A DNA stretch of 64,000 bases from Trueperaceae bacterium (GTDB taxonomy: Bacteria; Deinococcota; Deinococci; Deinococcales; Trueperaceae), in assembly GCA_965215565.1 (NCBI GenBank), contig CBDCDZ010000004.1, positions 4,320,001 through 4,384,000 of the forward strand, in the 5' to 3' direction. Both the position numbers and the translations under genes were made by a program. Shown here one piece after another: positions 9,024-30,877 of the stretch (its first letter is position 1; each line of letters opens with the position of its first letter). Below the pieces are notes generated by a model, which searched no databases, was not told the origin of the DNA, and saw only the letters and a program-made list of their open reading frames with translations.

Positions 9024-9225
9024 GAAACCCCTTTCGGTTGCTCAGCGATTCTACCTCACGGGTTCGGCGTAACGTGACCTCCGTTTACAGTTTGGGGGCC
9101 CCAGGTAGAGCTTTCAGAGAAGATGGCGCGGCAAGAAGAGGTGGCGGAGATGTTGAGTGAAAAGGTCTGAATCCTTTTGCATGTTTTGCCGTTGTTGAAA
9201 CTACGTCTCTGCCGTATAATTACTT

Positions 9226-9288
9226 GTGCTCGAGTTCACCGAAACCTCTTTGTTCACGAAGATCAAGGAGGCGATTGACCATGAATGA
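9226..9288 (+). pseudogene. RelE/HigB-like toxin stub with internal deletion
   Basis: 20-codon VLEFTETSLFT-KIKEAIDHE* after TATAAT (9215-9220), overlapping the antitoxin start. Confidence 0.6.
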
Positions 9289-9583
9289 AAAAGACCTAGC
9301 TGAATGGGAAAAAGGACGCGACCTCGGTCAAGAAATCTTGCAGGGTATAGGAGAGATTAAAGCAGGTAAAACGGGGCGGAGATATACAGCAGCGTCTTTC
9401 CCAATCGTTCGTGCTCGTGAAAAAACAGGGTTAAGCCAAAGCGAATTTTCTGAACTCCTCGGTGTGTCGGTTCGCACCCTCCAAGATTGGGAGCAGGGAC
9501 GGCGAGAGCCTTCGGGGGCTGCGAAGACGTTGCTCAAAGTGGCGGAGCGTTGTCCTGAGATTTTGCGGGAGGTGGCAGCTTAG
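9281..9583 (+). CDS. XRE/HTH antitoxin (HigA-like)
   Basis: AREKTGLSQSEFSELLGVSVRTLQDWEQGRREPSGAAKTLL. Confidence 0.88.
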   Translation: MNEKDLAEWEKGRDLGQEILQGIGEIKAGKTGRRYTAASFPIVRAREKTGLSQSEFSELLGVSVRTLQDWEQGRREPSGAAKTLLKVAERCPEILREVAA

Positions 9584-9654
9584 TTATTGGGAGTGGGAGA
9601 AGATTGACCTCTCAGTAAAGATAGCGAAGTGGGAAGAGGTGACGGAGATGCTGA

Positions 9655-9972
9655 ATGCAAAAGCATGATGTAGAGATAGAGAAGCGCTACCTAATGCTGA
9701 AAGGAGTACTCGAGCAACTCGCTGAGCGCTTTTATGACAATCCAGGTATTCAAGCTTTACGCAAAGAGAACCGTTATGACGTTGTTGAGCAAGTTAAAGA
9801 CTACGCTAATCATAGCGAATTTAGCATTTCATTCGAGACACTTGTAGATCAGCTTTACGAATTTGACATAGCGATTTCAAAAGAAGATGTCAAGCACATC
9901 CGGTACGTGGCTGACCTCTTAAAAATTCCTTACAAACGCTGGGGTTTTGTGCGTCGCTTGGTTAGAAATTGA
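9655..9972 (+). CDS. Hypothetical protein, MafI-like immunity protein
   Basis: AT-richer ORF; HSEFSISFETLVDQLYEFDIAIS resembles the MafI pattern as I recall it. Confidence 0.55.
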   Translation: MQKHDVEIEKRYLMLKGVLEQLAERFYDNPGIQALRKENRYDVVEQVKDYANHSEFSISFETLVDQLYEFDIAISKEDVKHIRYVADLLKIPYKRWGFVRRLVRN

Positions 9973-10149: not shown

Positions 10150-11223
10150 TTGCCTGTAGCCGAGCCCATCCGCCCGACCTCAGCCACCTCACGCCCTGCC
10201 CCTGCCAAGAAGCCCAAGCTCTGGACCCCTAAGCGTGTCCTCTTCACCCCGGACGCCTTAGAGCAGCCCTTTGGTCAGCAGATGTACGAGCGCATGACCT
10301 CTTTAGGTTTAGATATCACCGAACTCAAGAGCAACCGCGTCACGGGCTTGCGCGGCAAAGACGAGCGTGAGACCTACCGCCTCGCCAAGCAGACCCTAGC
10401 GGTGGTCAACGCGCCCCCCAGCATGATGAAGCTCCAGCCCATCCCACCCTCGGCGGACTGGCAGTTTCACCTCGCTAAGGGCTGCCCCGCGCACTGCCAG
10501 TATTGCTATTTGGCGGGCTCCCTGTCGGGTCCACCCGTGACCCGCGTCTACGCTAATTTGCCTGAGATTTTGGGTCATCTAGCGCAGTACGAGAACGGTC
10601 CGACCTCTTTCGAGGTGTCGTGCTACACCGACCCGCTCGGTCTGGAGCACCTCACGGGCAGCTTGTCCGAGTGCATCAAGTATTTCGGCACGCGCACGGA
10701 CGGCTCACTGCGCTACGTGAGCAAGTTCGACGCGGTGGACGGGTTGCTCGACTTGCCGCATAACGGTCAGACTCGCGCCCGCGCATCGGTCAACGCTGAG
10801 CTTATCGGCAAGAGGCTCGAGGGTGGCACCGCCCCCGTCTCCGCCCGCTTAGGAGCCATCCGCAAGCTCGCCCAGGCGGGCTATCCCGTCGGCTTAGTCA
10901 TCGCGCCCATCATGCCTATCGAGGGCTGGCGTGAGCACTACACCGCCTTGTTCGGCGAGATCGAGGCGACCCTAGACTTCCCCGTGGACCTCACCTTCGA
11001 GCTGATCAGCCACCGCTTCACGCCCGGCTCGAAAGAGGTCTTGGAGGGCTGGTATCCGAACAGCAGCCTCGACCTGAGCGAGGAGAACCGCAGCGTCAAG
11101 CGCAACAAGTTCGGCGGCACGAAGTTCGTCTACACGAAGGACACGATGAAGACCTTGCGCGAGTTTTTCGAGGCGGAGATAGCCGTGCGCTTTCCCGAGG
11201 CGCAACTTCTGTACTGGACGTAA
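10150..11223 (+). CDS. Spore photoproduct lyase family radical SAM protein, copy 1
   Basis: GCPAHCQYCYL CX3CX2C; SCYTDPLG; AGYPVGLVIAPI; NKFGGTKFVY. Confidence 0.9.
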   Translation: MPVAEPIRPTSATSRPAPAKKPKLWTPKRVLFTPDALEQPFGQQMYERMTSLGLDITELKSNRVTGLRGKDERETYRLAKQTLAVVNAPPSMMKLQPIPPSADWQFHLAKGCPAHCQYCYLAGSLSGPPVTRVYANLPEILGHLAQYENGPTSFEVSCYTDPLGLEHLTGSLSECIKYFGTRTDGSLRYVSKFDAVDGLLDLPHNGQTRARASVNAELIGKRLEGGTAPVSARLGAIRKLAQAGYPVGLVIAPIMPIEGWREHYTALFGEIEATLDFPVDLTFELISHRFTPGSKEVLEGWYPNSSLDLSEENRSVKRNKFGGTKFVYTKDTMKTLREFFEAEIAVRFPEAQLLYWT

Positions 11224-11290
11224 GCAGATGTACGTGAGGTGTTGGCTGCTGGCGGCTGACACCTCTTCTCTTTTGGTTTAGGAGACCTCT

Positions 11291-12343
11291 CTGAATCTTC
11301 TCAACGTCAAAAAGATTTATCTCGAGCCCGACGTCCCCGCCTATCCACGCGGCATGGAAATCTTAGCCCGCTTCCCCGACGCGGAGCAAATTGAAATCCC
11401 ATCTCATTGGAACATCCCCAGCTTGCACGGCAACGAGGGTTCGGTGGACGACTGGGTACGTATCAAGCGCGACGTGCTCGTTTTGGGCGTGCGTAAGTCG
11501 CTACCTGTGCGTGAAAATGGGCGGAGCGGCGACTTTATCGCGCCGGGCACCGCGAACGGCTGCGCGATGGCCTGCGCCTACTGCTACGTGCCGCGCCGCA
11601 AGGGGTACGCCAACCCCATCAGCACCTTTGTGAATATCGACGCGGTTTGCAAAGCGATTCGCCGTCACGCCGCTAAACAGCCTCCCAAGCCACTTCTTCA
11701 AACCGACCCTAAATGTTGGGTCTACGATATCGGCGAGAACAGCGACTGTTCGGTGGACGCGCTCATCTCAGACAACGTCCGCGACCTCGTAACGCTCTTT
11801 TGGGAACTTCCGAATGTAAAGGCGTCCTTTGCGACCAAGTACGTCAATTGCGACCTCTTGAACTACGATCCGCAGGGCAAGACCCGCATCCGCTTCTCGC
11901 TCATGCCGCAGAAGATCGCCAAGACCGTAGACGTGCGCACCTCACCTATGAGCGAGCGTATCGCAGCGGTGAACGACTTCGTGGCGGCGGGCTATGAAGT
12001 ACATCTCAACTTCAGCCCGATTATCTTGTACGAAGGCTGGTTAGAGGACTACGCGGCACTTTTAGAAGAGGTGGACGACGTACTCTCCGACGAAGCTAAG
12101 GCGCAGCTCAAGTGCGAGGTCATCTTCCTGACGCACAATGAGGGGCTGCATGAGGTCAATTTAGGGTGGCACCCGAAAGCCGAAGACCTACTCTGGACGC
12201 CTGAGAACCAAGAGGCCAAGGTGTCGAAGATGGGTGGGAGGAATGTGCGGTACAAGCGCGGGTTTAAGGGGGCGCGGGTGCGGGAGTTTAGGAGGTTGCT
12301 AGAGGAGAGGTTGCCGTATTGTGAGGTGCGGTATGCGTTTTGA
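11291..12343 (+). CDS. Spore photoproduct lyase family radical SAM protein, copy 2
   Basis: GCAMACAYCYV; IGENSDCS; AGYEVHLNFSP; protein-like frame extends upstream of ATG 11354 to CTG 11291 behind AGGAGA. Confidence 0.88.
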   Translation: MNLLNVKKIYLEPDVPAYPRGMEILARFPDAEQIEIPSHWNIPSLHGNEGSVDDWVRIKRDVLVLGVRKSLPVRENGRSGDFIAPGTANGCAMACAYCYVPRRKGYANPISTFVNIDAVCKAIRRHAAKQPPKPLLQTDPKCWVYDIGENSDCSVDALISDNVRDLVTLFWELPNVKASFATKYVNCDLLNYDPQGKTRIRFSLMPQKIAKTVDVRTSPMSERIAAVNDFVAAGYEVHLNFSPIILYEGWLEDYAALLEEVDDVLSDEAKAQLKCEVIFLTHNEGLHEVNLGWHPKAEDLLWTPENQEAKVSKMGGRNVRYKRGFKGARVREFRRLLEERLPYCEVRYAF

Positions 12344-12826: not shown

Positions 12827-13049
12827 ATGATCCCGCCAAGAGACGCTCGAAACGATCAACGAACTCCTCCCTCAGCAACCGCAAGAGAAGCTCGAGGCAC
12901 TCCTATCTTGGCTTGAGCAAGAAGACGACGCTTTCAAGGCGCGGCTACGTGCTGACGTTGGCGCTGGTAAGTTTGACCAACTCATTGCTGATGTGATTGC
13001 TGAAGACGAAGCTGGAGAGACCCTAGACCTTGAAGCGTCGTGCGATTAA
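12827..13049 (+). pseudogene. Antitoxin-like gene with +1 frameshift near the start, followed by a toxin start stub
   Basis: ETLETINELL...RADVGAGKFDQLIADVIAEDEAGETLDL is out of frame with ATG 12827 by one base; overlapping TTG MKRRAIKA stub. Confidence 0.55.
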
Positions 13050-13116
13050 GGCGTTGCTGAACTTCCCAAGCTCGAGCGCTAGGATGTCTTCGCGGTTCTC
13101 AAGCTATAATCAACCT

Positions 13117-13338
13117 ATGGAACGTATTATGATTGACCCTAATATCTGCAACGGACGTCCGGTTATTAAGGGGACGCGCATTACGGTGCAAACTGTGCTC
13201 GAGTTTCTAGGTGCGGGCGATTCCATTGAGGACATTTTAGGCGAGTATCCGAGCCTGACACGCGAAGATATCTTGGCGAGTTTACGTTACGCCTCACGCT
13301 TGTCAGCCAACCGCTTTACGCTCGAGCGGGTTGCGTGA
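13117..13338 (+). CDS. DUF433 family antitoxin
   Basis: IDPNICNGRPVIKGTRITV...EYPSLTREDI; TATAAT at 13105-13110. Confidence 0.92.
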   Translation: MERIMIDPNICNGRPVIKGTRITVQTVLEFLGAGDSIEDILGEYPSLTREDILASLRYASRLSANRFTLERVA

Positions 13339-15207: not shown

Positions 15208-15453
15208 TAGCAGGTATTATCTGGTCAGAAACACGCTCACTGTAGAAAATACTGCTCAGCACGCACATTATGAGATGAGGTCTGCAGCACTCCGTCTCAG
15301 TATGTTTTGGAACTATTTATAGCAAGTCCAGCGAGAACGCCCCACATAGCTTCATCTGGTCAGACGCCCCTACGTCGCAAAGTATTGCCGAGTTGCGCAC
15401 ATCAGGGAATAATTTCCATGTTTGTTCGTCTCGTTAAGCTACGGAACTGCTGT
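15208..15453 (+). repeat. Two tandem family A elements (15208-15319 and diverged 15320-15453)
   Basis: Shared ATCTGGTCAGA...GCACAT...CGTCTC...GGAACT blocks. Confidence 0.75.
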
Positions 15454-17422: not shown

Positions 17423-18388
17423 ATGACCCAGCGAGGCGCGATCACCAAAGCGAGACGTTTAGCGAGCCTACCCGAACTCCTCGAGCGAAAACCGCGCACG
17501 ACCACCGAACTTGCTGAACTTTTTGGCGTTCCGAGGCGTACAGTTCAGCGCGACTTAGAGACGCTGCGTGAGGAAGGCTACGAGATTGACAGCCCTGCGC
17601 GCGGCCTCTACCTCATCCCCTCCAACCCCTCGAGTCTCAACGCCGTCGAAGCGCTCGCCGTCCACGCCGCCACCAGGCTCCTCTACCACCACGCCCCAGC
17701 ACGCAACCCGCACTACCGCTCCGCTTTAGAAAAGCTCGCCTCCTTGCTACCAGAACCGGCGCGAGGCGTCGCGCTGAGCAGCGTAGAGGCGCTGGGTGAG
17801 CGCCCTCCCGACGACAGGGCGCTCGAGCTTGCCGCTCAAGCGTGGTTCGAAGGGCGCGTGCTCGGGTTCGAGTATCTCTCGCCGAGCGGCTCGGGCAAGT
17901 GGCGCGCTAAAGCGCTAGAGATTTATATGATCGAGATCAACCGGGCCAACCTCGCCCCCTACGCCATCGGTTTCGAGCGCAGCTTTCACAAAAGGATACT
18001 CACCTGGAAGCTCTCGCGAATGCGCAACACGCGCCTACTTGGAGACACCTACACCATCCCTCAGAACTTCGATCCGAGGGACTACTTAGAGACCGCTTGG
18101 GGTGTCATCGGCACCAGTGGCGGAGAGACCGTAGCCGTGAAGTTGCGCTTCGCACCCGAGGCCGCTCACCGCTTACGTGAAGGCGGCTACCCGAACATGA
18201 GCATCGAGCGGGAACTAGCCGACGGCGCTTTAGAGGTCTCCATCCAGGCTGGCACGAACGACGAAGGGTTCCCCTTAGAGCTTCTCCCCTGGGTGCAGAG
18301 TTGGGGTCCGCGCGTCGAGGTGCTAGAACCCGCGAACTTGCGCGAACGCTGGTTAGAGGAGGCCCGGCGCGTCGCTGGGGTATACTAG
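17423..18388 (+). CDS. HTH-WYL-WCX transcriptional regulator next to the CRISPR locus
   Basis: wHTH ELAELFGVPRRTVQRDL; TWKLSRM; WVQSWGPRVEVLEP. Confidence 0.92.
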   Translation: MTQRGAITKARRLASLPELLERKPRTTTELAELFGVPRRTVQRDLETLREEGYEIDSPARGLYLIPSNPSSLNAVEALAVHAATRLLYHHAPARNPHYRSALEKLASLLPEPARGVALSSVEALGERPPDDRALELAAQAWFEGRVLGFEYLSPSGSGKWRAKALEIYMIEINRANLAPYAIGFERSFHKRILTWKLSRMRNTRLLGDTYTIPQNFDPRDYLETAWGVIGTSGGETVAVKLRFAPEAAHRLREGGYPNMSIERELADGALEVSIQAGTNDEGFPLELLPWVQSWGPRVEVLEPANLRERWLEEARRVAGVY

Positions 18389-18389
18389 G

Positions 18390-18502
18390 TAGCAGGTATC
18401 ATCTGGTTTGAGACGCTCCCACTTTGAAGAACACGCTCTAGCACGCACGTTCAGAGATGATATCTGCGGCACTTTGTCTCAGTATGTCGTGGAACTGCTG
18501 TA
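18390..18502 (+). repeat. Family A element, compact copy
   Basis: TAGCAGGTATCATCTGGTTTGAG...CAGTATGTCGTGGAACTGCTGTA. Confidence 0.85.
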
Positions 18503-18510
18503 GATAGCGC

Positions 18511-18587
18511 ATGTTCGTGAGGACGTTGACAACTCATGCTCGAGACTTAGAAGGGGTAAAACGCTAGTTTTGCCGTCTGGGTCTAGT
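18511..18587 (+). promoter_or_regulatory. CRISPR array 1 leader
   Basis: AAAACGCTAGTTTTGCCGTCTGGGTC shared with the array 2 leader; TTGACA at 18526-18531. Confidence 0.8.
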
Positions 18588-19164
18588 CTATTCCCCACGT
18601 GTGTGGGGATGAACCGCGAGCATCGCCAAACGCAAAGAGTACATCAAACTATTCCCCACGTGTGTGGGGATGAACCCACTGGGCAGAGTTGCCCCGTGAG
18701 ACGTTGCAACTATTCCCCACGTGTGTGGGGATGAACCGCTCGACAAGGCGCGTTCACAGTCGTTAAGAGACTATTCCCCACGTGTGTGGGGATGAACCGA
18801 ACTTAGCCGCGTCGGTCTGCTCGTAAGCGTCCTATTCCCCACGTGTGTGGGGATGAACCGTAACGAGCTGAGCGATTTACTATATTGCATTGCTATTCCC
18901 CACGTGTGTGGGGATGAACCGCTGGCTGTTTCACAGCAAACTAGGATACGCGACTATTCCCCACGTGTGTGGGGATGAACCGCGGCGTGCTGCGCCTGGA
19001 CACCTCGAACGTCACTATTCCCCACGTGTGTGGGGATGAACCGAGGTTTACCTCAAGTTAGCGCAGGTTAGCGAACTATTCCCCGCGTGTGTGGGGATGA
19101 ACCGTATCAGTGGACAACGCTCAGCCAATATATTCCCTATCCCCACGTGTGTGGGGATGAACCG
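18588..19164 (+). CRISPR. Type I-E CRISPR array 1: 10 repeats, 9 spacers of 32 bp
   Basis: CTATTCCCCACGTGTGTGGGGATGAACCG at 61-bp period; repeats 2 and 9 have one substitution, repeat 10 a 1-bp deletion. Confidence 0.98.
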
Positions 19165-19247
19165 GGTCATTTCCCATATGGAATTGTCACCCTCTGGGGT
19201 ATAGTAAAGAAGTGTAACACGCACGACACTCACCCAAAGGAGCAACT

Positions 19248-19592
19248 ATGTCCGAACCGACCGCCAACACCAACTTCAGTGACACCGAACGTCGCGCCCT
19301 TATCCTCGAGGGCGCGACGGGTGAAATGAGCAAACGACTCGACGACATTCACGCTGATATTAAAGAGCTGCGTGGCAGCGCCCGCGACGACAACCGTGAG
19401 CTACGCGCTGACATCAAGACAAACGCTGAGGCGACCCAGGCGGCTTTACTCAACGTTCAAACCAACATCATTGACGTACAAAAGAGCGTGATTAGCGTGC
19501 AGAACAGCATTAACCTAATGACGTGGCGACTGCTCGGCGGCGTGTTGCTTCTACTCATCGTCAACGGCATCATTGACCGGGTGTTTTCATGA
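19248..19592 (+). CDS. Coiled-coil protein with C-terminal TM helix (DUF1640/XhlA-like architecture)
   Basis: AAGGAG RBS; heptads NVQTNII-DVQKSVI-SVQNSIN; hydrophobic tail. Confidence 0.75.
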   Translation: MSEPTANTNFSDTERRALILEGATGEMSKRLDDIHADIKELRGSARDDNRELRADIKTNAEATQAALLNVQTNIIDVQKSVISVQNSINLMTWRLLGGVLLLLIVNGIIDRVFS

Positions 19593-19876
19593 ACGCACCT
19601 AACTCTTCCCCCGCGTCTGCGGCTAGCGGGAGCGTCCACGCGACAGAGGTGAACCCCTTACGCATACGCGAAAAGCTCGGCTTGTCGCAGAGTCAATTTG
19701 CTGAACTACTTAGCGTGAGTAAGAAAACCTTGCAGAATTGGGAGCAGGAGGTCCGCGCCCCATCCGGTCCAGCGCTGTCACTTCTTAAACTCGTTGCCGC
19801 CGACCCGAAACACGCCGCGCGAACGTTAGGCTCCGCAGAATCCGGCTTTGCCGGTTCGTTAGGGGTGAAGCGGTGA
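19589..19876 (+). CDS. XRE/HTH protein (HigA-like)
   Basis: IREKLGLSQSQFAELLSVSKKTLQNWEQEVRAPSGPALSLL; ATGA overlap. Confidence 0.85.
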   Translation: MNAPNSSPASAASGSVHATEVNPLRIREKLGLSQSQFAELLSVSKKTLQNWEQEVRAPSGPALSLLKLVAADPKHAARTLGSAESGFAGSLGVKR

Positions 19877-20250
19877 AAGGGTTGAGGGCATTTTTAGCAG
19901 CGCTTTTGTGTGTTCTTTTGGGCGCGTGCGGTGAGGTGGACATCGACACAGGTTAGAGCATAGGTTAAGGCTGAAAGCCTCAGCATCTGAGATGCTCACC
20001 TGTGTTCAAAGGCTCTTAGCCTTCACCTGTGCAACCCACTACCGAGGAGTACCGGGCGCTGCTCACAGGTGAATGCTGAGAGCGTCCGGCAGTCGCCGTA
20101 ACCTGTGAGCGCCGCCTTATAGACGGCTACACGCTGCACGACGTGTATCAAGTGACGGCGGGTGAGCAGGTGACGGCTAAGAGCCGAGCTGAGCTTTGCT
20201 CTAACCTGTGCGAGCAAGACCTCATCGAGCCGGATGGCGTCATCGTGGGC
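19873..20250 (+). pseudogene. Lipoprotein gene interrupted by a fold-back element and bounded by a CRISPR repeat
   Basis: MKGLRAFLAALLCVLLGAC lipobox; GTGA overlap; TAG at 19954 lies within the element's left arm. Confidence 0.65.
19947..20210. mobile_element. 264-bp fold-back/MITE-like element, 14-bp TIR, CGA flanks
   Basis: CACAGGTTAGAGCA / TGCTCTAACCTGTG; CGA at 19944-19946 and 20211-20213; nested internal inverted repeats. Confidence 0.65.
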
Positions 20251-20279
20251 CTATTCCCCACGTGTGTGGGGATGAACCG
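20251..20279 (+). CRISPR. Solitary CRISPR repeat identical to the array 1 consensus
   Basis: CTATTCCCCACGTGTGTGGGGATGAACCG. Confidence 0.95.
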
Positions 20280-20285
20280 GAGAAA

Positions 20286-20495
20286 ATGATGGATGACATG
20301 AAACCGGTAACGAGCATGGCTGACGTTCCCGACTTCTCTACAGATGAGGAAGAGCAAGCGTTCTGGGCGACGCATTACATCGGCGACGATGTGCTCGTCA
20401 CTCCGCGCGAACTGTCTGACCAGCCGCTTCCTCCCCCGCGTCCACGCAGGGTTGAATCCAAGCGTATCTCGCTCACGCTCGAGCCAAGTGAATGA
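20286..20495 (+). pseudogene. CopG/BrnA-type antitoxin, C-terminally truncated
   Basis: VPDFSTDEEEQAFWATH...SKRISLTL stops at the start of the RHH domain. Confidence 0.7.
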
Positions 20496-20565
20496 AATAT
20501 CAGCAACGCTGCTGACCTCCCATCGCCATTGACCTCATAATCTAAGGGCGGCAGAAGGCAGCTTC

Positions 20566-21153
20566 TCAAATATCCGCTAGAATTTTCTCAGCTAACTGCT
20601 TGGCAACCTTCTCTTTCGCTTCCTCTTCTCGCCGCGCTTTGTCGTACTTCGCTGCTCTGACCTCGAGCTTCTCGCCCAATATGCGGAGGGCGCGTTCAGG
20701 TTTCATAAAGGGATTGAGCACGAAGCTGTACGTCCGCTTCCGCTGCCGGTCAATGGCTAAAATTTGATAATGTTTTGGACTTAGCAGCGCAGCGAGTTCA
20801 AAGCGTCCCATGCGCTCTGCTGCGATAATCTGCGAGTCTTTGAGCTTGTTCTCTAAGTCCCAACGGCTAAGTTCACGGTCACTACCAAATGTCGGACGCA
20901 TTCCGAGGATATTCCACAAAAAGGGGATGCCGAATGATGCTAGGAAAGAGAGTCCAAGAGAGAGCGGTAAAACACCGACTCTCTGCCAAAATTCGCTACC
21001 CCACACGATAAGCGCAGTGCCAAGGACTGCCGTCGCAATAAACGTATACATTGCCCAGACTGGCAAGTAAGCCTCCCCTCTAATAGCAGCGTTGAACCGC
21101 TTGTGCCACGGTGCTTTGTCTATTAGTAGGTCTCTAAACAATGTATCTGACAT
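20566..21153 (-). CDS. Hypothetical 2-TM membrane protein divergent from cas3
   Basis: AGGAGG RBS before ATG 21153; two hydrophobic helices; charged C-terminus. Confidence 0.75.
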   Translation of the reverse strand: MSDTLFRDLLIDKAPWHKRFNAAIRGEAYLPVWAMYTFIATAVLGTALIVWGSEFWQRVGVLPLSLGLSFLASFGIPFLWNILGMRPTFGSDRELSRWDLENKLKDSQIIAAERMGRFELAALLSPKHYQILAIDRQRKRTYSFVLNPFMKPERALRILGEKLEVRAAKYDKARREEEAKEKVAKQLAEKILADI

Positions 21154-21281
21154 GCACGTCCTCCTATTGCAGATGATAACGAAGTGCTGAACCCTTATTA
21201 TCGCATATTGCGCTTGGTGAGTGAGGGGCGCGTCAGCTATTACGAGGCACAGTACGAGCGAGCGATTGCAAGATTTTACTT

Positions 21282-21298
21282 GCGTCACCAATTGACGT
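21282..21298. promoter_or_regulatory. Palindrome GCGTCA-N5-TGACGT upstream of cas3
   Basis: Same motif recurs upstream of cas8e. Confidence 0.65.
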
Positions 21299-21320
21299 TA
21301 GAGCGTGATATATCTGTTTC

Positions 21321-24065
21321 ATGCCTAAGTTGAGCCAACGAGCACAGAGCTTCTGGGCGAAGAGCCCTAAAAAAGGTGAGCCGTTCGAGTCCCACCCCGT
21401 TATCGCTCACCTCTTGGACGTAGCCGCGAGTGCGTCCGAAATTCTGAAACTCGAGCCCGAGAAGATAACTGCTCTGTACGCCGGTGACTTCAAGCTGTGC
21501 GAAAGTGAGGCTGCCCTTTGGGTTTGCGCTCTGGCAGGGTTGCATGACCTTGGCAAAGTGAGCCCAGCGTTTCAGCAACTCTGGACTCCGGGGTTGGAGA
21601 AACTTATTTCGGTTGCTCCCGAGTTTGATTGGCATACTACCGACTCGCTTGCCCCTTCGTCCCCACCAGGCTACGTTTCTCACAGTGTAGTCAGCCAGGT
21701 CATACTGCCTAGCTTGCTGAAAGCAAAAGGCTTTCAGGGTACGTTAGCAAAGGGCGTTGCGGACGCTGTCGGCTGTCACCACGGGTTTCGAGCAGATGGT
21801 CAAGAACTCGGTGAGGCGTGTAAAAAGAAAGAGAAGGGACGCGAGGTCTGGGACGACGCGCGTGAAGAGATATTCAGAGCAGTATTAGAGGTCGTTGGCG
21901 TTACGGATAGCCCCGAGGTGAAAAAACTAAGCGCAGCAGGCTTTATGCGCCTTGCGGGTCTAACGAGCTTTGCAGATTGGATCGGCTCGAGCCTCTATCC
22001 CTCACTAAGCTTCGTCGGGTATGAGAATGACCTGGAAGGTTACTACGAAGAGGCGAAGGTGGCAGCGCGACATAGGTTAGCTGAATTGGGTTGGACAAAG
22101 CGTACGCCTCTACACACGGACGCGCGACTACTGGAGGATACCTTCGCTTATCTCACTCGTGAAGAAGGCAAGCCGTTCTCGCCGCGCACGCTCCAGACAG
22201 AAGTCGAGAAGCTGTTGAGGGAGGTCTCCGCGCCAACCCTTCTACTCATCGAAGCGCCGATGGGCGAAGGTAAAACGGAGGCTGCATTCTACGCGCACCT
22301 GCGCCTGCAAACCGAACTCGGTCACAGAGGGATGTACGTGGCGCTGCCCACGATGGCAACCGGAAACGCGATGTTCAGCCGGACGGCTGAGTTCTTGAAC
22401 GAGCAAGCCGAGGGACGGACGGTTCCGCTCGACTTGCAGCTTTTGCACGGGGCGACGCAGCTCAATAGTGTCTATCAAGCGCTTCAGAGCGAAGTGCGTC
22501 CTAACTTTCCCGATGAAGAGAAGCTCGAGCACGTCCAAGCGAGAGAGTTCTTCACGCACAAGAAGCAAGCCCTTCTTTCGGAGTATGGCGTCGGCACGGT
22601 GGACCAGGCGCTACTGACCATTTTGAACATTCGGCATCAGTTCGTGAGGCTGTGGGGTCTCGGCAACCGCGTCGTCATCATCGACGAGGTTCACGCTTAC
22701 GACACCTACACCTCAGAACTCGTGAATGGACTCGTGCGCTGGCTCCACGCACTCGGCTCGAGCGTCGTTTTACTGAGCGCGACCCTCTCCGAGAAATCTC
22801 GTAACGAGTTGCTCGAGGCTTACGGCGGGGAGGCAAAAGAGACCGAAGGCTATCCGCGCATCTTCAAAGTTGCTGCTGGTGAAACCGAAGTCTTTCCGTT
22901 CGACGCCGAATCTAAGCGTAAGGTCGAGATAGCTGTCCATCACCTCGCCGCAGATTTGGACACCATCGTTCGGCTGTTGGAGGATAAGCTCGCAAAAGGT
23001 GGTTGCGCAGTCTGCATTGTCAACACGGTAAACCGGGCGCAAGAGCTTTATAAGAAGCTCGGGGGGAAAGATACGTACCTCTTTCACGCCCGCTATCCTG
23101 CCGAAGAACGCGCTGAGATTGAGACTCATATCTTAGAGACGTTTGGCAAAGCAGCAACGAGGGAGAACGGCAAGCGCCCGCACCGCGCTATCCTTATCGC
23201 CACCCAAGTCGTAGAGCAGTCGCTCGACCTCGACTTCGACCTCATGGTCACAGACTTAGCACCAGTGGACCTCATTATCCAACGGGCAGGGCGCATGTGG
23301 CGGCACGAGCGCCCGTCGTCAGAGCGCCCTATCTCTGAGCCACAGCTCTTCATCGCGGGCATGGAGCATGAGGGAGAGCTGCCGGAGTTGTCACGCTATT
23401 TTTGGGACAGGGTCTATCAGCCTTTTATCCTCTACAAAACCTGGGACGTGCTGCAAGGTAAAACTCAGCTCACGCTGCCCACTGATATTGACGACCTTGT
23501 GCAGCGCGTTTATGACGGTGATAGTGAACCGCTCCAAGCGAGGCTTTCAGAAGAGGCGTTTGAGCAAGCTGAAGAAAATCAGCGCAAGTTCGTGGAGGAG
23601 CGAAAGGCTGATAAAAGCCTCGCACGTGAAGCAATCATCAGTCAGGTGAGGAAGAACGGTGAGCTTGCGCTACGCGACCCGACCAGAGTTAGAGAAGAAG
23701 AGGACAAACCGAATGGACTGCCAGCCGTTTTTACGCGCAAAGGGCAACCCTCAGTGCTCGCCGTTCCCCTCTTTGAGCGCGGCGGTGAATACTTCTTGGA
23801 TGCCGAAGCAAAAAAGCCCTATGACGCTAAAAAGCCGCTCGAGACCTATAAACGCTCCGTCCGCCTGAGCAGGCGCGGGTTTCCTCAAGCACTTGAGAAG
23901 CACAATGCGGCGCAGGGATTTGAAGAGACTTTTAAGCACTGGGAGAAGAACCCGCTTTTGCAAAACTGCGTTCCACTTGTGCTAGATACGGATGGAAGCG
24001 TTGTCGTGGGTCAAACGAGAGTAAGACTGGATAGCGTTTTAGGCGTGGTGTATGAAAGCGCCTAA
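21321..24065 (+). CDS. cas3: CRISPR helicase/nuclease Cas3 (HD + SF2)
   Basis: HLLDVA, HDLGK, CHHG, EAPMGEGKTEA, IIDEVHAYD, ATQVVEQSLDLDFD, QRAGRMWRH. Confidence 0.98.
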   Translation: MPKLSQRAQSFWAKSPKKGEPFESHPVIAHLLDVAASASEILKLEPEKITALYAGDFKLCESEAALWVCALAGLHDLGKVSPAFQQLWTPGLEKLISVAPEFDWHTTDSLAPSSPPGYVSHSVVSQVILPSLLKAKGFQGTLAKGVADAVGCHHGFRADGQELGEACKKKEKGREVWDDAREEIFRAVLEVVGVTDSPEVKKLSAAGFMRLAGLTSFADWIGSSLYPSLSFVGYENDLEGYYEEAKVAARHRLAELGWTKRTPLHTDARLLEDTFAYLTREEGKPFSPRTLQTEVEKLLREVSAPTLLLIEAPMGEGKTEAAFYAHLRLQTELGHRGMYVALPTMATGNAMFSRTAEFLNEQAEGRTVPLDLQLLHGATQLNSVYQALQSEVRPNFPDEEKLEHVQAREFFTHKKQALLSEYGVGTVDQALLTILNIRHQFVRLWGLGNRVVIIDEVHAYDTYTSELVNGLVRWLHALGSSVVLLSATLSEKSRNELLEAYGGEAKETEGYPRIFKVAAGETEVFPFDAESKRKVEIAVHHLAADLDTIVRLLEDKLAKGGCAVCIVNTVNRAQELYKKLGGKDTYLFHARYPAEERAEIETHILETFGKAATRENGKRPHRAILIATQVVEQSLDLDFDLMVTDLAPVDLIIQRAGRMWRHERPSSERPISEPQLFIAGMEHEGELPELSRYFWDRVYQPFILYKTWDVLQGKTQLTLPTDIDDLVQRVYDGDSEPLQARLSEEAFEQAEENQRKFVEERKADKSLAREAIISQVRKNGELALRDPTRVREEEDKPNGLPAVFTRKGQPSVLAVPLFERGGEYFLDAEAKKPYDAKKPLETYKRSVRLSRRGFPQALEKHNAAQGFEETFKHWEKNPLLQNCVPLVLDTDGSVVVGQTRVRLDSVLGVVYESA

Positions 24066-24087
24066 ATGCTTACTTGTCTATCCTCTG

Positions 24088-24104
24088 GCGTCACTAAATG
24101 ACGC
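24088..24104. promoter_or_regulatory. Perfect palindrome GCGTCA-N5-TGACGC upstream of the Cascade operon
   Basis: In the short cas3-cas8e gap, before CATATT at 24110-24115. Confidence 0.65.
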
Positions 24105-24141
24105 TTCACCATATTAAAGTGAGTTGAAGGAGGACCAAACA

Positions 24142-25758
24142 TTGGCTACGTTCAACCTCATTACAAAACCTTGTATTCCTGTACGAGTAAATGGAAAACT
24201 CGAGCACTACTCCCTCGAACAAACGCTTTTGGACGCGAAAGACATTGAGCGCATAGAGGACGCCTCTCCTCTCGTTGTAGTCGCGCTGCACCGGCTTCTG
24301 CTCGCCATTCTCTACCGCGCCCTCAACCCTGACAGCACTGAAGAGATTGGGGAGTGGCTCGAGGACGGCTTTCCAGAGGAGGGCATACGCACCTACTTGG
24401 AGAAGTGGAAACCTCACTTCGATTTGTTTGATGCGAAACGCCCTTTTTATCAGGTAGCAGACCTCGAGCAAGCTACCTTCGGCAAGCCGATTGAGCCGAA
24501 AGCCTGGACCGAACTCGCGCCCGAGGTGCGTGACGGCGGTCAGGGGGCGTCGCTCTTCAACCATCTTAACGAAGTTGCAGAGCCGATTCCTGCCGCCACA
24601 GCGTTTCACCAACTGCTCGTCCGTCAGACCTTTGCGCTAGGCGGGCTTAGCAGAACTTTCGTAGATTCGGCGAAGAATGCCCCTTCCCCAAACGCAGTCT
24701 TTCTCATACCACATGGGCAGAATTTACACGAAACACTCTGTTATTGTCTCGACCCTAACAACTACACACACCATGAGGACGACGTGCCATTCTGGGAGCG
24801 CAATACAGCTTATGATGTCGCTTACCTAGAAAGGACAAGAGAAGAGCCGGTTTTAGGCTGTGTTCAAGTGTATACCTGGATGAGCCGCTCAGTGAAGCTC
24901 ATCCCGCTCGAGACGGACGATGGTCCTTATGTTGAGGAAATCTACTTTGCCTCCGGCATCGCGCCGAAGTTCGAAATCGCTCAGTATTTCGACCCGATGG
25001 TTGGAAAGAGAGTTAAGTCCGGTAAAACCGAGAATAGCCTTACCTTTATTCGCTTCGATGGAAATAAGCAATTCTGGCGAGACTTCCAATCGCTATTCGC
25101 TGAACAGCAAACAGGTATAGCACCACGTGTAATTAGCCTATCTGCCCGCCTAGCATCTGAGTTCAACCGTAATGTGAATCTCGGCGTTTACGGCATCAAT
25201 AACAAGCAGGCAAAAGTAAACTTTGCGCGACAAGAAAACCACATTCTTCCCGAGGCTGTTAGCGCTGATAGGACAGAAGATGTTTATGCCACGCTTGCAA
25301 ACTCGCTCACGCAAACGGACAAGCTGGGGTATTCGCTAAGAAAAGCAATCTTTGAAATACATATTCACCTTGACCCCGAGCTTCGGATTAAAGATAAGAA
25401 GAAGCGAGAGGAATTCTGGCGAAAGGTCAACGCTCCACCTCCTCCTAAAGAGAATCCTACGATTACTCGGTTGAGAACGGCAGTGAATACATCCTACGGA
25501 GTTAGTTTTTATTGGTCTACACTGAGCCGTCTCTTTCCAGAGTTATTGGACCAGCTCACCGCTGACTTCAAACCCAAAGAAGTCCAACGTTATTGGGCGC
25601 AGAGACTCCTAGATGCTTCTGACCGCGCCTGGACGCTCGCCCGCGCCGCCGCTGGCGACGACGCCTACGCCCTCCGCGCCATCTACTCTGCCGAAGGCAT
25701 CCTACGCGCCGCGCAGAGCGAGTTTCGCACTCTCACTACATCTCAGGAGGCAGCATGA
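24142..25758 (+). CDS. cas8e: Type I-E Cascade large subunit Cas8e (Cse1/CasA)
   Basis: FNLITKPCIPV, LHRLLLAILYRA, FDLFDAKRPFYQ; AAGGAGG precedes TTG 24142. Confidence 0.93.
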   Translation: MATFNLITKPCIPVRVNGKLEHYSLEQTLLDAKDIERIEDASPLVVVALHRLLLAILYRALNPDSTEEIGEWLEDGFPEEGIRTYLEKWKPHFDLFDAKRPFYQVADLEQATFGKPIEPKAWTELAPEVRDGGQGASLFNHLNEVAEPIPAATAFHQLLVRQTFALGGLSRTFVDSAKNAPSPNAVFLIPHGQNLHETLCYCLDPNNYTHHEDDVPFWERNTAYDVAYLERTREEPVLGCVQVYTWMSRSVKLIPLETDDGPYVEEIYFASGIAPKFEIAQYFDPMVGKRVKSGKTENSLTFIRFDGNKQFWRDFQSLFAEQQTGIAPRVISLSARLASEFNRNVNLGVYGINNKQAKVNFARQENHILPEAVSADRTEDVYATLANSLTQTDKLGYSLRKAIFEIHIHLDPELRIKDKKKREEFWRKVNAPPPPKENPTITRLRTAVNTSYGVSFYWSTLSRLFPELLDQLTADFKPKEVQRYWAQRLLDASDRAWTLARAAAGDDAYALRAIYSAEGILRAAQSEFRTLTTSQEAA

Positions 25759-26299
25759 GCGAGAAGACGGACAGGTTCATCTCTTACTTATGGAAGCTAG
25801 ACCGCAAAGCCTTCGCCGAGCTGCGGCGCAGCCTCAGCGACGAACCGGGGCGCTCTATCCCTGCGATTCCTTACGTAGAGCGCTTCACCCTCGGTGAGCG
25901 CCGCTGGAATCAGCAGATGTACTACTTAGTGGCGGGGCTCTTTTGCCTTGTGGAGCGCCCGCTCGAGCAGAGTGCAACACCGCCCCCACCGCGCCAACAG
26001 AGCTTCGGCAGCAGCGTTGGAAGGCTCTACGTTCTTAAAGAGAAAAGCGCCAGCACCGAACGCCGCTTTATCCGGCTGCTCGACGCCGACGCGGGACAGC
26101 TCGCCGAGCGGCTTCGCCAGATGGTGTCTTTGCTGCGCTCCGAAGGCGTCGAAGTCGGTTGGTCGCGGCTTTTGAACGACCTGCTTTACTGGCACGCCGA
26201 CGACTGCAACATCCAGCACCGCTGGGCTCGAGAGTTTTACATGCAAGAAGCCAAGAGCGAAAGAGCATCCGAAACGGAAGAAGTGACAGGAGGAACCGC

Positions 26300-26303
<4 letters not shown>
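25755..26303 (+). CDS. cse2: Cas11 (Cse2/CasB)
   Basis: AELRRSL, ERRFIRLLDAD, WAREFY; operon position. Confidence 0.93.
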
Positions 26304-27438
<1,135 letters not shown>

Positions 27439-27442
<4 letters not shown>

Positions 27443-28071
27443 CGCACACGCTGTTACTTTGCTTGGCGGGTCCGCTCCAGTCGTGGGGCACGAAGTCCCG
27501 CTTCGACGAACGCGACACCGAACTCGAGCCCTCGAAAAGCGGCGTAATCGGGCTCTTATGTGCGGCGCTCGGCGTTGATCGGCACGAGGCGGAACCCGTT
27601 CTAAAGCTTGCCGAGATGCCGATGGGCGTTCGCGTTGACCGCGAGGGGGTGTTGCAGCGCGACTATCACACTGCTCAGAGAATTGACTATAGCGGTAGGG
27701 TGCGAGATACAGTCGTCTCGCACCGCTACTTCCTTTCGGACGCCGTTTTTCTCGTAGGTTTTGAGAGTGAGGATAGAAGTTTTCTCGCGGAGGTACAAGC
27801 GGCTTTGAAGAATCCACACTGGTCTCTTAGCCTCGGGCGCAAGTCTTTTGTGCCGTCACGCCCGATTTGGTTGTCCGACGGTCTTGTTCAGAAGAGCTTG
27901 GACGATGCCTTATGTCAGTATCCAAATCTCACGAACGAAGAGCCAGTGCGCTTAGTGCTCGAGAGTTCACGCGGCTCACTACGAACAGACCAGCCGCTCT
28001 CGAGCTTTCATGAGCGCCGTTTCGGTACGCGCTATGTTACGAGTGAGCCGTGGAGCCACCCATGTACTTGA
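27439..28071 (+). CDS. cas5: Cas5e (CasD)
   Basis: LAGPLQSWG, PSKSGVIGLLCAALG, LGRKSFVPS. Confidence 0.97.
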
Positions 28072-28787
28072 GCAAACTCGTCTTAAACCCTCGTGCTCAT
28101 CAAGTACGCCGCGATCTCACCAACCCCTACCAGACCCACGCCAGCCTCTGCTGGGCGTTTCGCAAACCTGAAGCGCTCTCAGAAGCCGAAACTGGAAGCT
28201 GGGAACGCGGCAAAACCGTGTATCCCTTTTTGTGGCGCTTGGAGCCGCCCCAGCCTCGCGCTGCACCAATCCTCTTAGTTCAGAGCGAAGTGGAACCTCA
28301 GTGGGACGTTTTCGCCGAGCGACACCCAAACTACTTTAGCCGAAAGGTCAAGGTAGGTAAGCTTCCCCTCGAGCACCTTGTACAGGGTCAAACCCTGCGC
28401 TTCCGTCTCAAAGCTAACCCGACCGTCACCAAGCGGCACGATGACCAACCCGATAAGCAGAAGCGCGTCGGGCTCTACAAGATGGAGGATTTACTCGGCT
28501 ACCGGAGTGATAACGGCGAATGGATACTTGGCTGGATTGAGCGGCAGAGCGACTTTGGCACAGAGCAGCGCGGCTTCGTGGTCGGCGCACAGGACGTTAT
28601 TTTGCGCAACACCGAGCGCTTGCGTTTTCATAAACATGAAGGAGGTCATCCCATCACCTTGCAGTCCGCGCTCTTCGACGGCTACTTGAAGATTACCGAC
28701 GTAGACCTATTCAAAGAGACGCTCGCTAAGGGCGTCGGCAAAGCCAAAGGGCTCGGCTTCGGTCTCCTCTCGGTTGCGAGAGCCTGA
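28062..28787 (+). CDS. cas6e: Cas6e (Cse3/CasE)
   Basis: MYLSKLVLNP, FRLKANPT, GVGKAKGLGFGLLS glycine loop. Confidence 0.96.
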   Translation: MYLSKLVLNPRAHQVRRDLTNPYQTHASLCWAFRKPEALSEAETGSWERGKTVYPFLWRLEPPQPRAAPILLVQSEVEPQWDVFAERHPNYFSRKVKVGKLPLEHLVQGQTLRFRLKANPTVTKRHDDQPDKQKRVGLYKMEDLLGYRSDNGEWILGWIERQSDFGTEQRGFVVGAQDVILRNTERLRFHKHEGGHPITLQSALFDGYLKITDVDLFKETLAKGVGKAKGLGFGLLSVARA

Positions 28788-29770
28788 TGCCCTCCTTACG
28801 CAACCTCCGCGAACTCCCCAAATTCCGCGACGGTCTCTCGTACCTCTACATCGAGCGCGGACGCATCGAGCAAGACGCTAAAGCCATCGCCTGGTACGGC
28901 GAAGAGGGCAAGGTGAGCGTACCCGCCGCCGCGCTGGGCGTCTTGATGCTCGGTCCCGGCACCAGCATCACCCACGAAGCCGTGAAAGCCTTGGCGGATA
29001 ACGGCTGCTTCATCAACTGGGTTGGCGAGGACAGCGTGCGCTTTTACGCGGGCGGCACAGGCGAGACGCGCAGCAGCGCCAACCTCATGCGCCAAGCGGA
29101 GTACTGGGCGGATAGTGGCAAACACCTTCAGGTAGTGCGGCGCATGTATGAGATGCGTTTTGAGGGTGGGTTAGAACCGGGGCTCACCCTCGAGCAGATT
29201 CGCGGCAAAGAGGGCGTGCGGGTGCGCACCATCTACGCCCAGATGAGTAAGGAGACCGGCGTCCCCTGGCACGGGCGCAGCTACAAACGCGGTGCTTGGG
29301 GCAGCGCTGACCCTATCAACCGCGCCCTCTCCGCCGGAGCCGCTTGCGTCTACGGCGTTTGCCACGCCGCTATCGTTTCAGCAGGCTACAGCCCCGCACT
29401 TGGCTTTATCCACACAGGCAAGCAACTCTCCTTCGTCTACGACATCGCCGACCTCTACAAGATGGAGGTGCTCGTACCCGCCGCCTTTAGACTCGTCGCC
29501 GAGTCAGACGAGCACGTAGAGAGCCGCGTTCGGCATCACCTTAGAGACGCCATGCGCGAGGCGCGGATGTTGGAGCGCGTCGTGAGCGACCTGCACAGCC
29601 TTTTCAGCAGCGACGCCGAGAGTAATGAACGCTTTGCCGAGGACGGCGCAGCACCGGGTGAGCTGTGGGACCCGAGCGGCAACGTGGAAGGAGGGGTGAG
29701 CTATGGTGGTGATGACGCTCGAGAAAGTACCGACGAGCCTACGCGGAGAACTGAGCCGCTGGATGGTTGA
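28787..29770 (+). CDS. cas1: Type I-E Cas1
   Basis: LMLGPGTSITH, RGKEGVRVR, GYSPALGFIHTG, FVYDIADLYK. Confidence 0.98.
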   Translation: MPSLRNLRELPKFRDGLSYLYIERGRIEQDAKAIAWYGEEGKVSVPAAALGVLMLGPGTSITHEAVKALADNGCFINWVGEDSVRFYAGGTGETRSSANLMRQAEYWADSGKHLQVVRRMYEMRFEGGLEPGLTLEQIRGKEGVRVRTIYAQMSKETGVPWHGRSYKRGAWGSADPINRALSAGAACVYGVCHAAIVSAGYSPALGFIHTGKQLSFVYDIADLYKMEVLVPAAFRLVAESDEHVESRVRHHLRDAMREARMLERVVSDLHSLFSSDAESNERFAEDGAAPGELWDPSGNVEGGVSYGGDDARESTDEPTRRTEPLDG

Positions 29771-30056
29771 AGTTTCGACAGGCGTCTACGTCGGCAAACT
29801 GAGCGCTTTGGTGCGCGACCTCTTGTGGGAAAAGGTCACGAAGAGCAAACGCACCGGGCGCTGTTGTCAGGTCTACCGCACCAACACCGAACAAGGGTTT
29901 GCCATTCGCATGGACGGCGACTCGGAAAGGAGTGTCGTTGACCTGGACGGGTTATACTTAGTGGCAGTGAAAAACGCGGCGTGGGAAAAGATGTTTGTTG
30001 AACCTGCCGAGGACCATGACAGACCCGATGGAGACATAGAGGGGTCAAAACGCTAG
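29703..30056 (+). CDS. cas2: Type I-E Cas2
   Basis: VPTSLRGELSRWMVEVSTGVYVG, NTEQGF, VDLDGL. Confidence 0.97.
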   Translation: MVVMTLEKVPTSLRGELSRWMVEVSTGVYVGKLSALVRDLLWEKVTKSKRTGRCCQVYRTNTEQGFAIRMDGDSERSVVDLDGLYLVAVKNAAWEKMFVEPAEDHDRPDGDIEGSKR

Positions 30057-30076: not shown

Positions 30077-30465
30077 CTATTCCCCACAGGCGTGGGGATG
30101 AACCGAACCAATGGTGCGAATAGGCTCAACTATTCCCCACAGGCGTGGGGATGAACCGACACCGTGTGCGAAGAAACGGTGCATGATTTCCTATTCCCCA
30201 CAGGCGTGGGGATGAACCGTATAGACACTCGGACCCAAGCGGCGAAACATGCCCTATTCCCCACAGGCGTGGGGATGAACCGAGATGGATACATCCAACT
30301 GGCACATTCAGGACCTATTCCCCACAGGCGTGGGGATGAACCGCCTCTCTCTTCACCTTCAGTTTTTTGGCTAGCCTATTCCCCACAGGCGTGGGGATGA
30401 ACCGTAGAACTCGTCGATTTGCCCGATGTCCTTGCCCTATTCCCCACAGGCGTGGGGATGAACCG
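30077..30465 (+). CRISPR. Type I-E CRISPR array 2: 7 repeats, 6 spacers (24, 32, 34, 32, 32, 32 bp)
   Basis: CTATTCCCCACAGGCGTGGGGATGAACCG at 30077, 30130, 30191, 30254, 30315, 30376, 30437. Confidence 0.98.
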
Positions 30466-30477
30466 CTGAATGAGAAA

Positions 30478-30510
30478 GCCCCTAGTTGGGCTAGGGGTCT
30501 TTTCTTTTTG
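30478..30510 (+). terminator. Intrinsic terminator after array 2
   Basis: GCCCCTAG-ttggg-CTAGGGGT then T-rich tract. Confidence 0.8.
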
Positions 30511-30658: not shown

Positions 30659-30877
30659 TAGCAGGTATCATCTGGTTTGAGTGCGCGGAGCGATGCGAAG
30701 CAACAATCTCACTTTGAAAAGCAGTGTTCAGCACGCAAATTCAGAGATGAAATCCCGCTAGCTTCGCTGAGACCTTTGGCGTTGCCAAAACTTCCGTTTG
30801 CGTAGCCCTTACTTCGTGAAGCTTCGCGCACCTTCGGGAGAAGCGCTCATCCGTCTCAGTATGTTTTGGAATTGCTA
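30659..30877 (+). repeat. Family A element with two internal mini-hairpin inserts
   Basis: Same ends and core as 18390/42669 plus inserts near 30683-30703 and 30750-30842. Confidence 0.85.

Follow-up and report, generated by a model that had tools for sequence, protein, structure and literature searches.

Gene-sized, repeat-bounded inserts, some with a protospacer-shaped end, in CRISPR arrays of Trueperaceae

How does a stretch of 1086 bp carrying genes come to occupy a spacer position in a CRISPR array, and does it serve a function there? The question is raised by array 1 of a type I-E locus in the window analysed here, a 64,000-nt stretch from the genome of a Trueperaceae bacterium (G000; other G and L numbers denote other genomes and loci, and P numbers proteins) that belongs to the same genus as G001. 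The locus is complete, with a WYL regulator, a leader, array 1, an intervening region, the cas genes and array 2, and its eight cas genes, 29-nt hairpin repeat, 32-nt spacers and leader are those of type I-E. The HTH-WYL-WCX regulator (17423-18388, + strand) is syntenic in G001 with 86% DNA identity. It is followed by the leader of array 1 (18505-18587, +), whose final 46 nt, taken together with the first repeat, share 89% identity with array 2, and by array 1 itself (18588-19164, +), with repeats 1-10 and nine 32-nt spacers. The insert (19165-20250, +) takes the final spacer position, and a perfect 29-nt repeat (20251-20279, +) closes the array. Further on lie cas3, cas8e, cas11, cas7, cas5, cas6e, cas1 and cas2 (21321-30056, +) and array 2 (30077-30510, +), which has 7 repeats and a terminator-like hairpin. 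As a side observation, a 110-bp dispersed host repeat lies between the regulator and the leader (18390-18499), with further copies at 15208-15314 and about 30662-30750; it is MITE- or REP-like, gives well over 100 genomic blast matches and occurs also in G001 and G002, although it is missing at this place in G001.

The first-pass annotation had described repeat 10 (19137-19164, +) and the perfect repeat at 20251-20279 as lying in the same orientation with 1086 nt between them, and our analysis confirms this. Repeat 10 has 28 nt, one T being deleted; its 3' end is intact, with G as the final base, and its hairpin has 9 bp versus 7. Both junctions are clean, as at a canonical I-E spacer, whereas the length of 1086 nt departs from the canonical 31-34 nt; ordinary spacers measure 31-33 nt in 375 of 382 cases. 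All 18 copies of the array repeat found in the 4.49-Mb genome, scanned with up to 7 mismatches, lie inside the window. Misassembly is rejected on the basis of contigs of the runs X1 and X2, which cover 19015-20639 with 0 differences and no indels and bridge both repeats: one X2 contig (19015-19991) spans repeat 10 and another (19962-20639) spans the last repeat. Since X1 and X2 are runs of one sample, possibly the source of the assembly (4 contigs, 99.99% complete), this match shows accuracy, not independent occurrence. The insert of G001 is likewise matched by same-sample contigs. The giant spacer in array 1 is real and not misassembled. Among the joints listed for the X1 and X2 contigs, in which rare variants are dropped, none skips the insert from repeat 10. 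A joint at 18677-20247 was considered as an excision product and rejected, since 28 other letters lie between its sides; we read it as a repeat-spacer-repeat unit of another strain.

The insert holds three coupled genes, as had been described, with ORFs at 19248-19592, 19589-19876 and from 19873 onwards that overlap via ATGA and GTGA. ORF A (19248-19592, +) encodes 114 aa and is coiled-coil-like, with a predicted hydrophobic C-terminal helix (19-mer, Kyte-Doolittle mean 2.05), in line with the earlier description as a coiled-coil and transmembrane protein. Among 13 candidates, 4 homologues were found at 88-95%. No family scored above the cut-off for ORF A, and no toxin match was found in Pfam, PHROGs, PADLOC or NCBIfam. 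Its atlas look-alikes are mostly unnamed, and one XhlA-like cluster at 0.91 is a lead only. The protein was not found in 60 relatives or in the metagenome scan, and two viral matches were rejected because they comprise only residues 19-41 of a Mu-like phage protein. ORF B (19589-19876, +) is the XRE-type HTH gene that had been proposed (HTH_3, E 1.5e-9), with NadS/MqsA-like scores below the cut-offs. The proteins closest to it, P0007 and P0010, are encoded on contigs of 18053 and 1310 bp, the same sizes as for two of the ORF A homologues, so ORF A and ORF B probably travel as a pair. ORF C (19873-20250, +) is a lipoprotein pseudogene, broken as the annotation had it: it matches residues 1-71 of the 128-aa protein P0129, and the last repeat starts at the next codon, cutting the gene mid-frame.

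The insert also shows signs of age. Five insertions, three in ORF C and two in ORF B, interrupt the cargo, and three of the five are multi-copy host repeats. In ORF C, a palindromic multi-copy host repeat (19947-20033; up to 19 copies, hairpin of -38.6 kcal/mol) brings in stops, a 42-nt insertion with a stop (20065-20106) has no counterpart in P0129, and a second copy of a palindromic host repeat family (up to 31 copies) occupies 20163-20215; ORF B carries an in-frame host repeat (19617-19646) and an 11-aa insertion relative to P0007. Host repeats thus sit in two of the three cargo genes. The lipoprotein gene is dead, whereas ORF A is undamaged and the frame of ORF B has been kept, and these repeats and insertions indicate that the insert is ageing DNA. 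The repeats at 19947-20033, 20163-20215 and 19617-19646 belong to two further families of host repeats that enter coding sequence, one of which is strongly palindromic and frequently tandem; the host-repeat insertions seen in the cargo are multiples of three. The Rfam scan gave nothing near gathering scores. No source sequence for the insert was found among the 60 relatives, the metagenome scan, the viral matches or 127 family genomes; a search for the same ORFs in relatives, which had been suggested as a check, gave 0 of 60 at the protein level and only short repeat-type DNA matches in the 127 genomes.

Is the insert singular? A one-off rearrangement had been offered as the plain alternative, and the recurrence of such inserts with other cargo, together with the protospacer-shaped right end described below, argues against it. 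Gene-size non-IS inserts between repeats were found in 6 of 20 Trueperaceae genomes (those with at least one array read; not every array of each genome was read), amounting to 9 inserts, each with other cargo. At the orthologous place in G001, the insert has 970 bp and encodes a BrnT-like toxin and a CopG antitoxin on the opposite strand; its left border is a phage head morphogenesis stub (E 7.8e-11), and a repeat, a short spacer and a worn repeat lie behind it. By eye, an HU-like C-terminus followed by a terminator can be made out at its right edge (L022:8135-8216, - strand), with a weak tblastn match. The other inserts are an 882-bp one in G071, which carries a DUF2283 module and lies in a mini-array that has decayed and near which neither cas7 nor cas1 was matched; a 1062-bp one in G020 with RES and Xre genes; a 378-bp one in G032 with one gene; and, in G005, a tandem series of three in a type I-D array (1191 bp with DUF4258-DUF2283, 547 bp with a secreted-type gene and 678 bp with HicAB) and a 503-bp one with two genes in a second array. 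The tandem series (L302:843-2688; G005:C1:4220213-4223753), which lies at the trailer and includes a stub beside DUF4258-DUF2283, would be a better study object than the window insert itself. The 18 further arrays at non-I-E cas1 loci yielded no such insert. In the rest of the order, inserts occur in 3 of 63 I-E loci with arrays (80 fetched), namely L215, L221 and L222, and 144 pattern-scan loci, 35 of them with enough flank or several clusters, added L182 and L100.

Several gaps were excluded from this count: that of G068, which is an IS21-like element; L064, L066, L074, L177/L178, L211 and L267, where the gap ends leader-like or holds cas genes; L213, L217, L232 and L239, which contain N gaps; L315 and L328, where about 100 nt reflect a missed repeat; and L060/L061, which equal G001. 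As a separate observation, L066 (Spirochaetota), L064 and L074 show units of a leader and short array alternating with single genes (AAA-ATPase-like, membrane proteins), that is, arrays repeatedly seeded with their own leader.

Phage genes cut at the borders speak for DNA copied in from invading elements: besides the stub in G001, they are seen in L182 (terminase small subunit, spanin-like genes) and L221 (Mu-like protease, PBECR2 nuclease). The G071 insert aligns to its final bases with the G005 copy of the DUF4258-DUF2283 module, which continues beyond, and hence it was cut from longer DNA. The module is in sense orientation in G071 and antisense in G005; judging by sequence, it has been captured twice, by two CRISPR types and in opposite orientations. 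G072, a genome without a match to the I-E repeat pattern, also holds it. Both partners of a toxin-antitoxin (TA) pair are present in 5 of the 9 Trueperaceae inserts, a raw count without background control in which the G071 toxin is assigned through homology to that of G005. As to position, 12 of the 14 inserts occupy one of the final four spacer slots of their array, the exceptions being L182 (first) and L100 (internal). The L182 insert (L182:78-1183), a 1106-bp phage fragment behind a leader-like stretch, has AAG + 32 nt at its end and lies on a low-coverage (1.2x) contig that may be chimeric, and L221:14644-15953 is a Mu-like phage fragment with a PBECR2 nuclease domain, ending in AAG + 31 nt.

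With the whole set in hand, the function proposed by the first-pass annotation can be weighed. According to that proposal, the insert could be a functional cassette that is co-transcribed with the array, cut out by Cas6e as a repeat-bounded mRNA and may act as an addiction or abortive-infection module. Mechanically, co-transcription and release are possible, since cas6e is present and the hairpin is kept in both repeats. The cassette is in sense orientation, ORF A is intact and the HTH gene stays in frame through two insertions. The annotation saw no terminator after array 1, and no + strand terminator-like site was detected in 18300-21400, in contrast to the hairpin and U-run (-19.2 kcal/mol) behind array 2. 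As a purpose, however, release is not sustained: relative to the array, whose direction was taken from leaders and repeat conventions, 5 of the 14 inserts are sense, 8 antisense and 1 mixed. In addition, the window insert has what are likely its own expression signals, a -10-like hexamer (TATAGT, 19200-19205, +) and a Shine-Dalgarno sequence (AAAGGAG, 19236-19242, +), both read from the sequence and not among the matches of the scan that covered 18300-21400; these motifs, and not release by Cas6e, are likely to drive expression of ORF A and the HTH gene. A TA or abortive-infection role of the pair is also not borne out. As in a type II TA module, ORF A is coupled to an antitoxin-type gene (HTH_3 above the cut-off, specific antitoxin models below theirs), but no recognisable toxin was found in PADLOC, Pfam or NCBIfam, though true TA pairs occur in other Trueperaceae inserts; moreover, the third gene is truncated and broken, and the cargo was found as protein in 0 of 60 relatives. 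We thus consider a functional cassette quite improbable, and Cas6e release is unlikely to be the reason why such inserts exist.

Evidence on origin comes from the right end. According to the accessible text of PMC10011333, I-E spacers measure 31-34 nt, and the G of the AAG PAM ends up as the final base of the upstream repeat; AAG is also the PAM of Thermus I-E in the accessible part of PMC6452258. In the window insert, AAG (20216-20218, +) is followed by exactly 32 nt up to the last repeat (20250), the geometry of a PAM and protospacer, and it runs across Gln-Asp codons whose residues are conserved in P0129. The label of a giant spacer, given in the first-pass annotation, is an apt one. Of the 10 I-E inserts, 5 have an AAG at a distance of 31-33 nt from the downstream repeat, where 0.58 would be expected from each insert's own AAG frequency (P 1.1e-4), and AAG is the top triplet. 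The offsets are 32 in G000, 33 in G071, 33 in G020, 32 in L182 and 31 in L221, with L222 just outside the range at 30. The signature is missing in G001 (nearest AAG at 24), G032, L215 and L100, the last of which may end in a leader, so that counting it as a miss is conservative. Leaving out the window insert gives P 1.2e-3, and the five best-assembled genomes alone give 2 of 5 (P 0.024). The prediction was set before the scripted test, although the matches in G000, G071 and G020 had first been seen by eye, and AAG was taken from Thermus and E. coli and may differ from the Trueperaceae PAM; comparison of 2379 spacers with the available DNA gave 4 uninformative rows, and two handle searches matched repeats only. 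An assembly chimera via shared spacers would mimic the AAG pattern in the short-read contigs L067, L182 and L221, whereas G000 (4 contigs) and G071 (3 contigs) are not of this chimera-prone kind. The type I-D inserts (n=4) show no clear PAM signal.

Three further features concern the remaining ends. Of the 5 AAG-positive inserts, 4 follow a repeat whose final base is G; the start of an insert repeats no more than 2 nt of its terminal 32-mer; and a reverse-orientation PAM was found at none of the 10 left ends. In addition, offset 32 occurs in only 2 of the 5 AAG-positive inserts, as against 309 of 375 ordinary 31-33-nt spacers (P about 0.04).

Can a rearrangement unrelated to CRISPR activity explain these data? 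The locus would then be a patchwork of the defence-island type, the stray repeat would be left over from an insertion or deletion, and AAG would be there by chance, which for a single AAG at 31-33 has a probability of about 0.04. The trailer flank is indeed full of TA stubs in both G000 and G001: behind the last repeat, 20280-20495 (+) comprises a shortened antitoxin of the CopG/BrnA type (20286-20495) and what, from comparison with G001 by eye, are likely to be the final codons of a toxin gene since lost. Long spacers are also known and are mostly IS elements (11 of 14 table rows in the accessible material of PMC4524480), like the IS21-like element in G068. The window insert, however, has no transposase, terminal inverted repeats or split spacer, both of its junctions are clean repeat ends, and neither the recurrence of the pattern, seen in 6 of 20 genomes of the family, nor the excess of AAG (P about 1e-4) is readily put down to chance. 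We regard this explanation as rather improbable. Next to the antitoxin remnant lies a gene for a 195-aa membrane protein of no known family (20566-21153, - strand), which is conserved before cas3, head-to-head with it, in G000 and G001; despite this conserved neighbour, cas3-cas8e of the two genomes are only distantly alike.

The explanation that we prefer, tentatively and with slightly less than even confidence, is that invader DNA between two protospacers replaced the part of the array between two matching spacers. Priming would first provide two spacers that derive from the same strand of a single element, where their protospacers lie about 1 kb apart and in matching order; in type I-E, priming acquires spacers from the same strand (PMC10011333, accessible text). 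In a later infection, a cut fragment would recombine at both 32-nt matches, and the DNA between the protospacers would replace the intervening repeats and spacers. Recombination between spacers and phages has been reported (Varble 2019, as cited in the accessible part of PMC10608574). The first 32 nt of the insert (19165-19196, +) may accordingly be a former spacer that acted as the upstream homology arm. Such an event would leave what is observed: both boundaries clean at the repeats, an upstream repeat that ends in G, 32 nt between AAG and the downstream repeat, and a gene interrupted in mid-frame. Spacers behind a kilobase insert would no longer be useful and would be lost, and this purge may be why the inserts end at the trailer; an intact TA pair may also make an insert resist deletion between its flanking repeats. 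The near absence of the terminal 32-mer from the insert start (at most 2 nt) fits two arms, and a single crossover plus deletion was rejected because no spacer remnant is seen at the left ends. Recombination at two spacers needs no new enzymology, and the clean junctions, the lack of a left 32-mer remnant and the G at 4 of 5 upstream repeats favour it slightly. Among the points against it are that no source sequence was found for the window insert in the DNA searched and that 5 of the 10 I-E inserts, including that of G001, lack the AAG signature.

Alternatively, Cas1-Cas2 may have integrated an oversized substrate, joining the non-PAM end first while the PAM side was still attached to about 1 kb of DNA; a second strand transfer would then have attached the far end at the boundary with the other repeat. 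The order of joining and the delayed PAM trimming in E. coli I-E, according to the accessible parts of 10.1101/608976 and PMC10011333, predict AAG + 32 nt exactly. The L182 insert, as first spacer behind a leader-like stretch, and the three tandem inserts of G005, which resemble repeated additions, are consistent with such events, and we also count on this side, as a weak point, the spread of AAG offsets over 31-33. However, the explanation requires a full-site event, which was not found in the literature searched; a random far end would place G at the upstream repeat end in about 3 of 10 cases, fewer than seen; no left end carries a reverse PAM; and L182 is a 1.2x short-read contig. We therefore consider it unlikely, if a serious competitor to recombination at two spacers.

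The window insert, with its protospacer-shaped end, belongs to a class of gene captures between repeats that recurs in Trueperaceae. These arrays likely acquire entire genes of invaders, with their own spacers serving as the sites of recombination. CRISPR arrays would thus be a route of horizontal gene gain, and not only a barrier, with whole genes, often TA pairs, written at a defined chromosomal site. Four features go beyond the first-pass annotation: AAG + 32 nt at the right end, the cut in mid-gene, the presence of host repeats within the cargo, and the remnant of a CopG antitoxin that follows the last repeat.

Integron cassette arrays consist of tandem gene pieces between recombination-prone repeats, are rich in TA pairs and depend on an integrase and attC sites. 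The G005 array, with three TA-rich gene inserts in a row between repeats, resembles them; in contrast to integrons, the borders cut genes, the orientation is random, no excision or shuffling was seen, and no integron integrase was found among the 21 window proteins scanned. It is a speculative idea, which we hold to be unlikely as it stands, that the I-E and I-D arrays of Trueperaceae form an integron-like capture platform, in which the adaptation or interference machinery banks kilobase pieces of invaders, TA and other defence genes are retained and pile up at the trailer, and cassettes are delimited by the repeats.

CreTA/CreR mini-arrays, reportedly described by Li and colleagues in 2021, are said to be TA modules adjoining arrays, with TA genes tied to the CRISPR locus and a lone repeat; in such a mini-array, a guide flanked by degenerate repeats matches the promoter of a cas or toxin gene. 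Our locus shares the TA genes and the lone repeat, but here the lone repeat is perfect and closes the insert. The 33 nt behind the last repeat have no genomic match over 17 nt, and blastn-short with the 33 nt after repeats 10 and 11, whose scoring leaves partial seed matches aside, revealed no CreR-like or self-targeting guide. Elsewhere, degenerate repeats, single or paired, were noted at L027:12467, L031:10178-10259, the L037 region, L035:9801 and the L048 region as candidates for CreR-like mini-arrays. In G005, G025, G073 and G020 they are located within the cas region, some 6.4 kb upstream of the I-E array, and in G032 12 kb upstream, a feature not seen in the window.

The product that Varble and colleagues obtained in 2019 is said to be a transducing particle that moves cas genes. 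Both cases join invader DNA to an array via spacer homology (Varble et al. 2019); here, a gene-size piece has become fixed in an array on the chromosome, where it is flanked by two intact repeats and has retained the PAM at one end. With ordinary I-E acquisition by Cas1-Cas2 (accessible parts of PMC10011333 and 10.1101/608976), the inserts share the repeat boundaries, the AAG-defined end and the G at the upstream repeat end, whereas the window insert has 1086 nt instead of 31-34 nt, retains the PAM inside and carries genes. Long spacers of at least 100 nt, likewise hundreds to thousands of bases between repeats, were listed by Kupczok et al. 2015 (PMC4524480, Table S4) in 14 rows, 11 transposon-like and 3 with non-transposon genes; being mostly IS, they are treated as plain spacers, and the accessible text describes no PAM end, TA cargo or tandem series. 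In the literature searched, which covered few subscription papers and included the accessible parts of PMC8179228 and PMC8730458, no description of PAM-ended gene capture into arrays was found. Array finders split such loci, and the giant-spacer class is therefore probably under-counted. Its readable signature is a PAM that precedes the downstream repeat by 32 nt, which allows a direct test of the two mechanisms in the I-E systems of E. coli or Thermus. If Cas1-Cas2 is responsible, this would be kilobase site-specific integration by a small integrase, of relevance to recording and editing.

Some minor observations were made in the genome of the window organism. It has a second, divergent Cas7e-like gene (L052/L053; G000:C4:1554747-1555739) with no array within about 20 kb. 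In contig C3 (23.7 kb), a 16-nt match recurs every 10,996 bases, and the contig may be a concatemer of an 11-kb plasmid. Upstream of the locus lie orphan antitoxin-like genes at 9103-9668 and 13030-13338 (XRE HTH, DUF433), and two ORFs at 10150-12343 are presumably spore-photoproduct-lyase-like.
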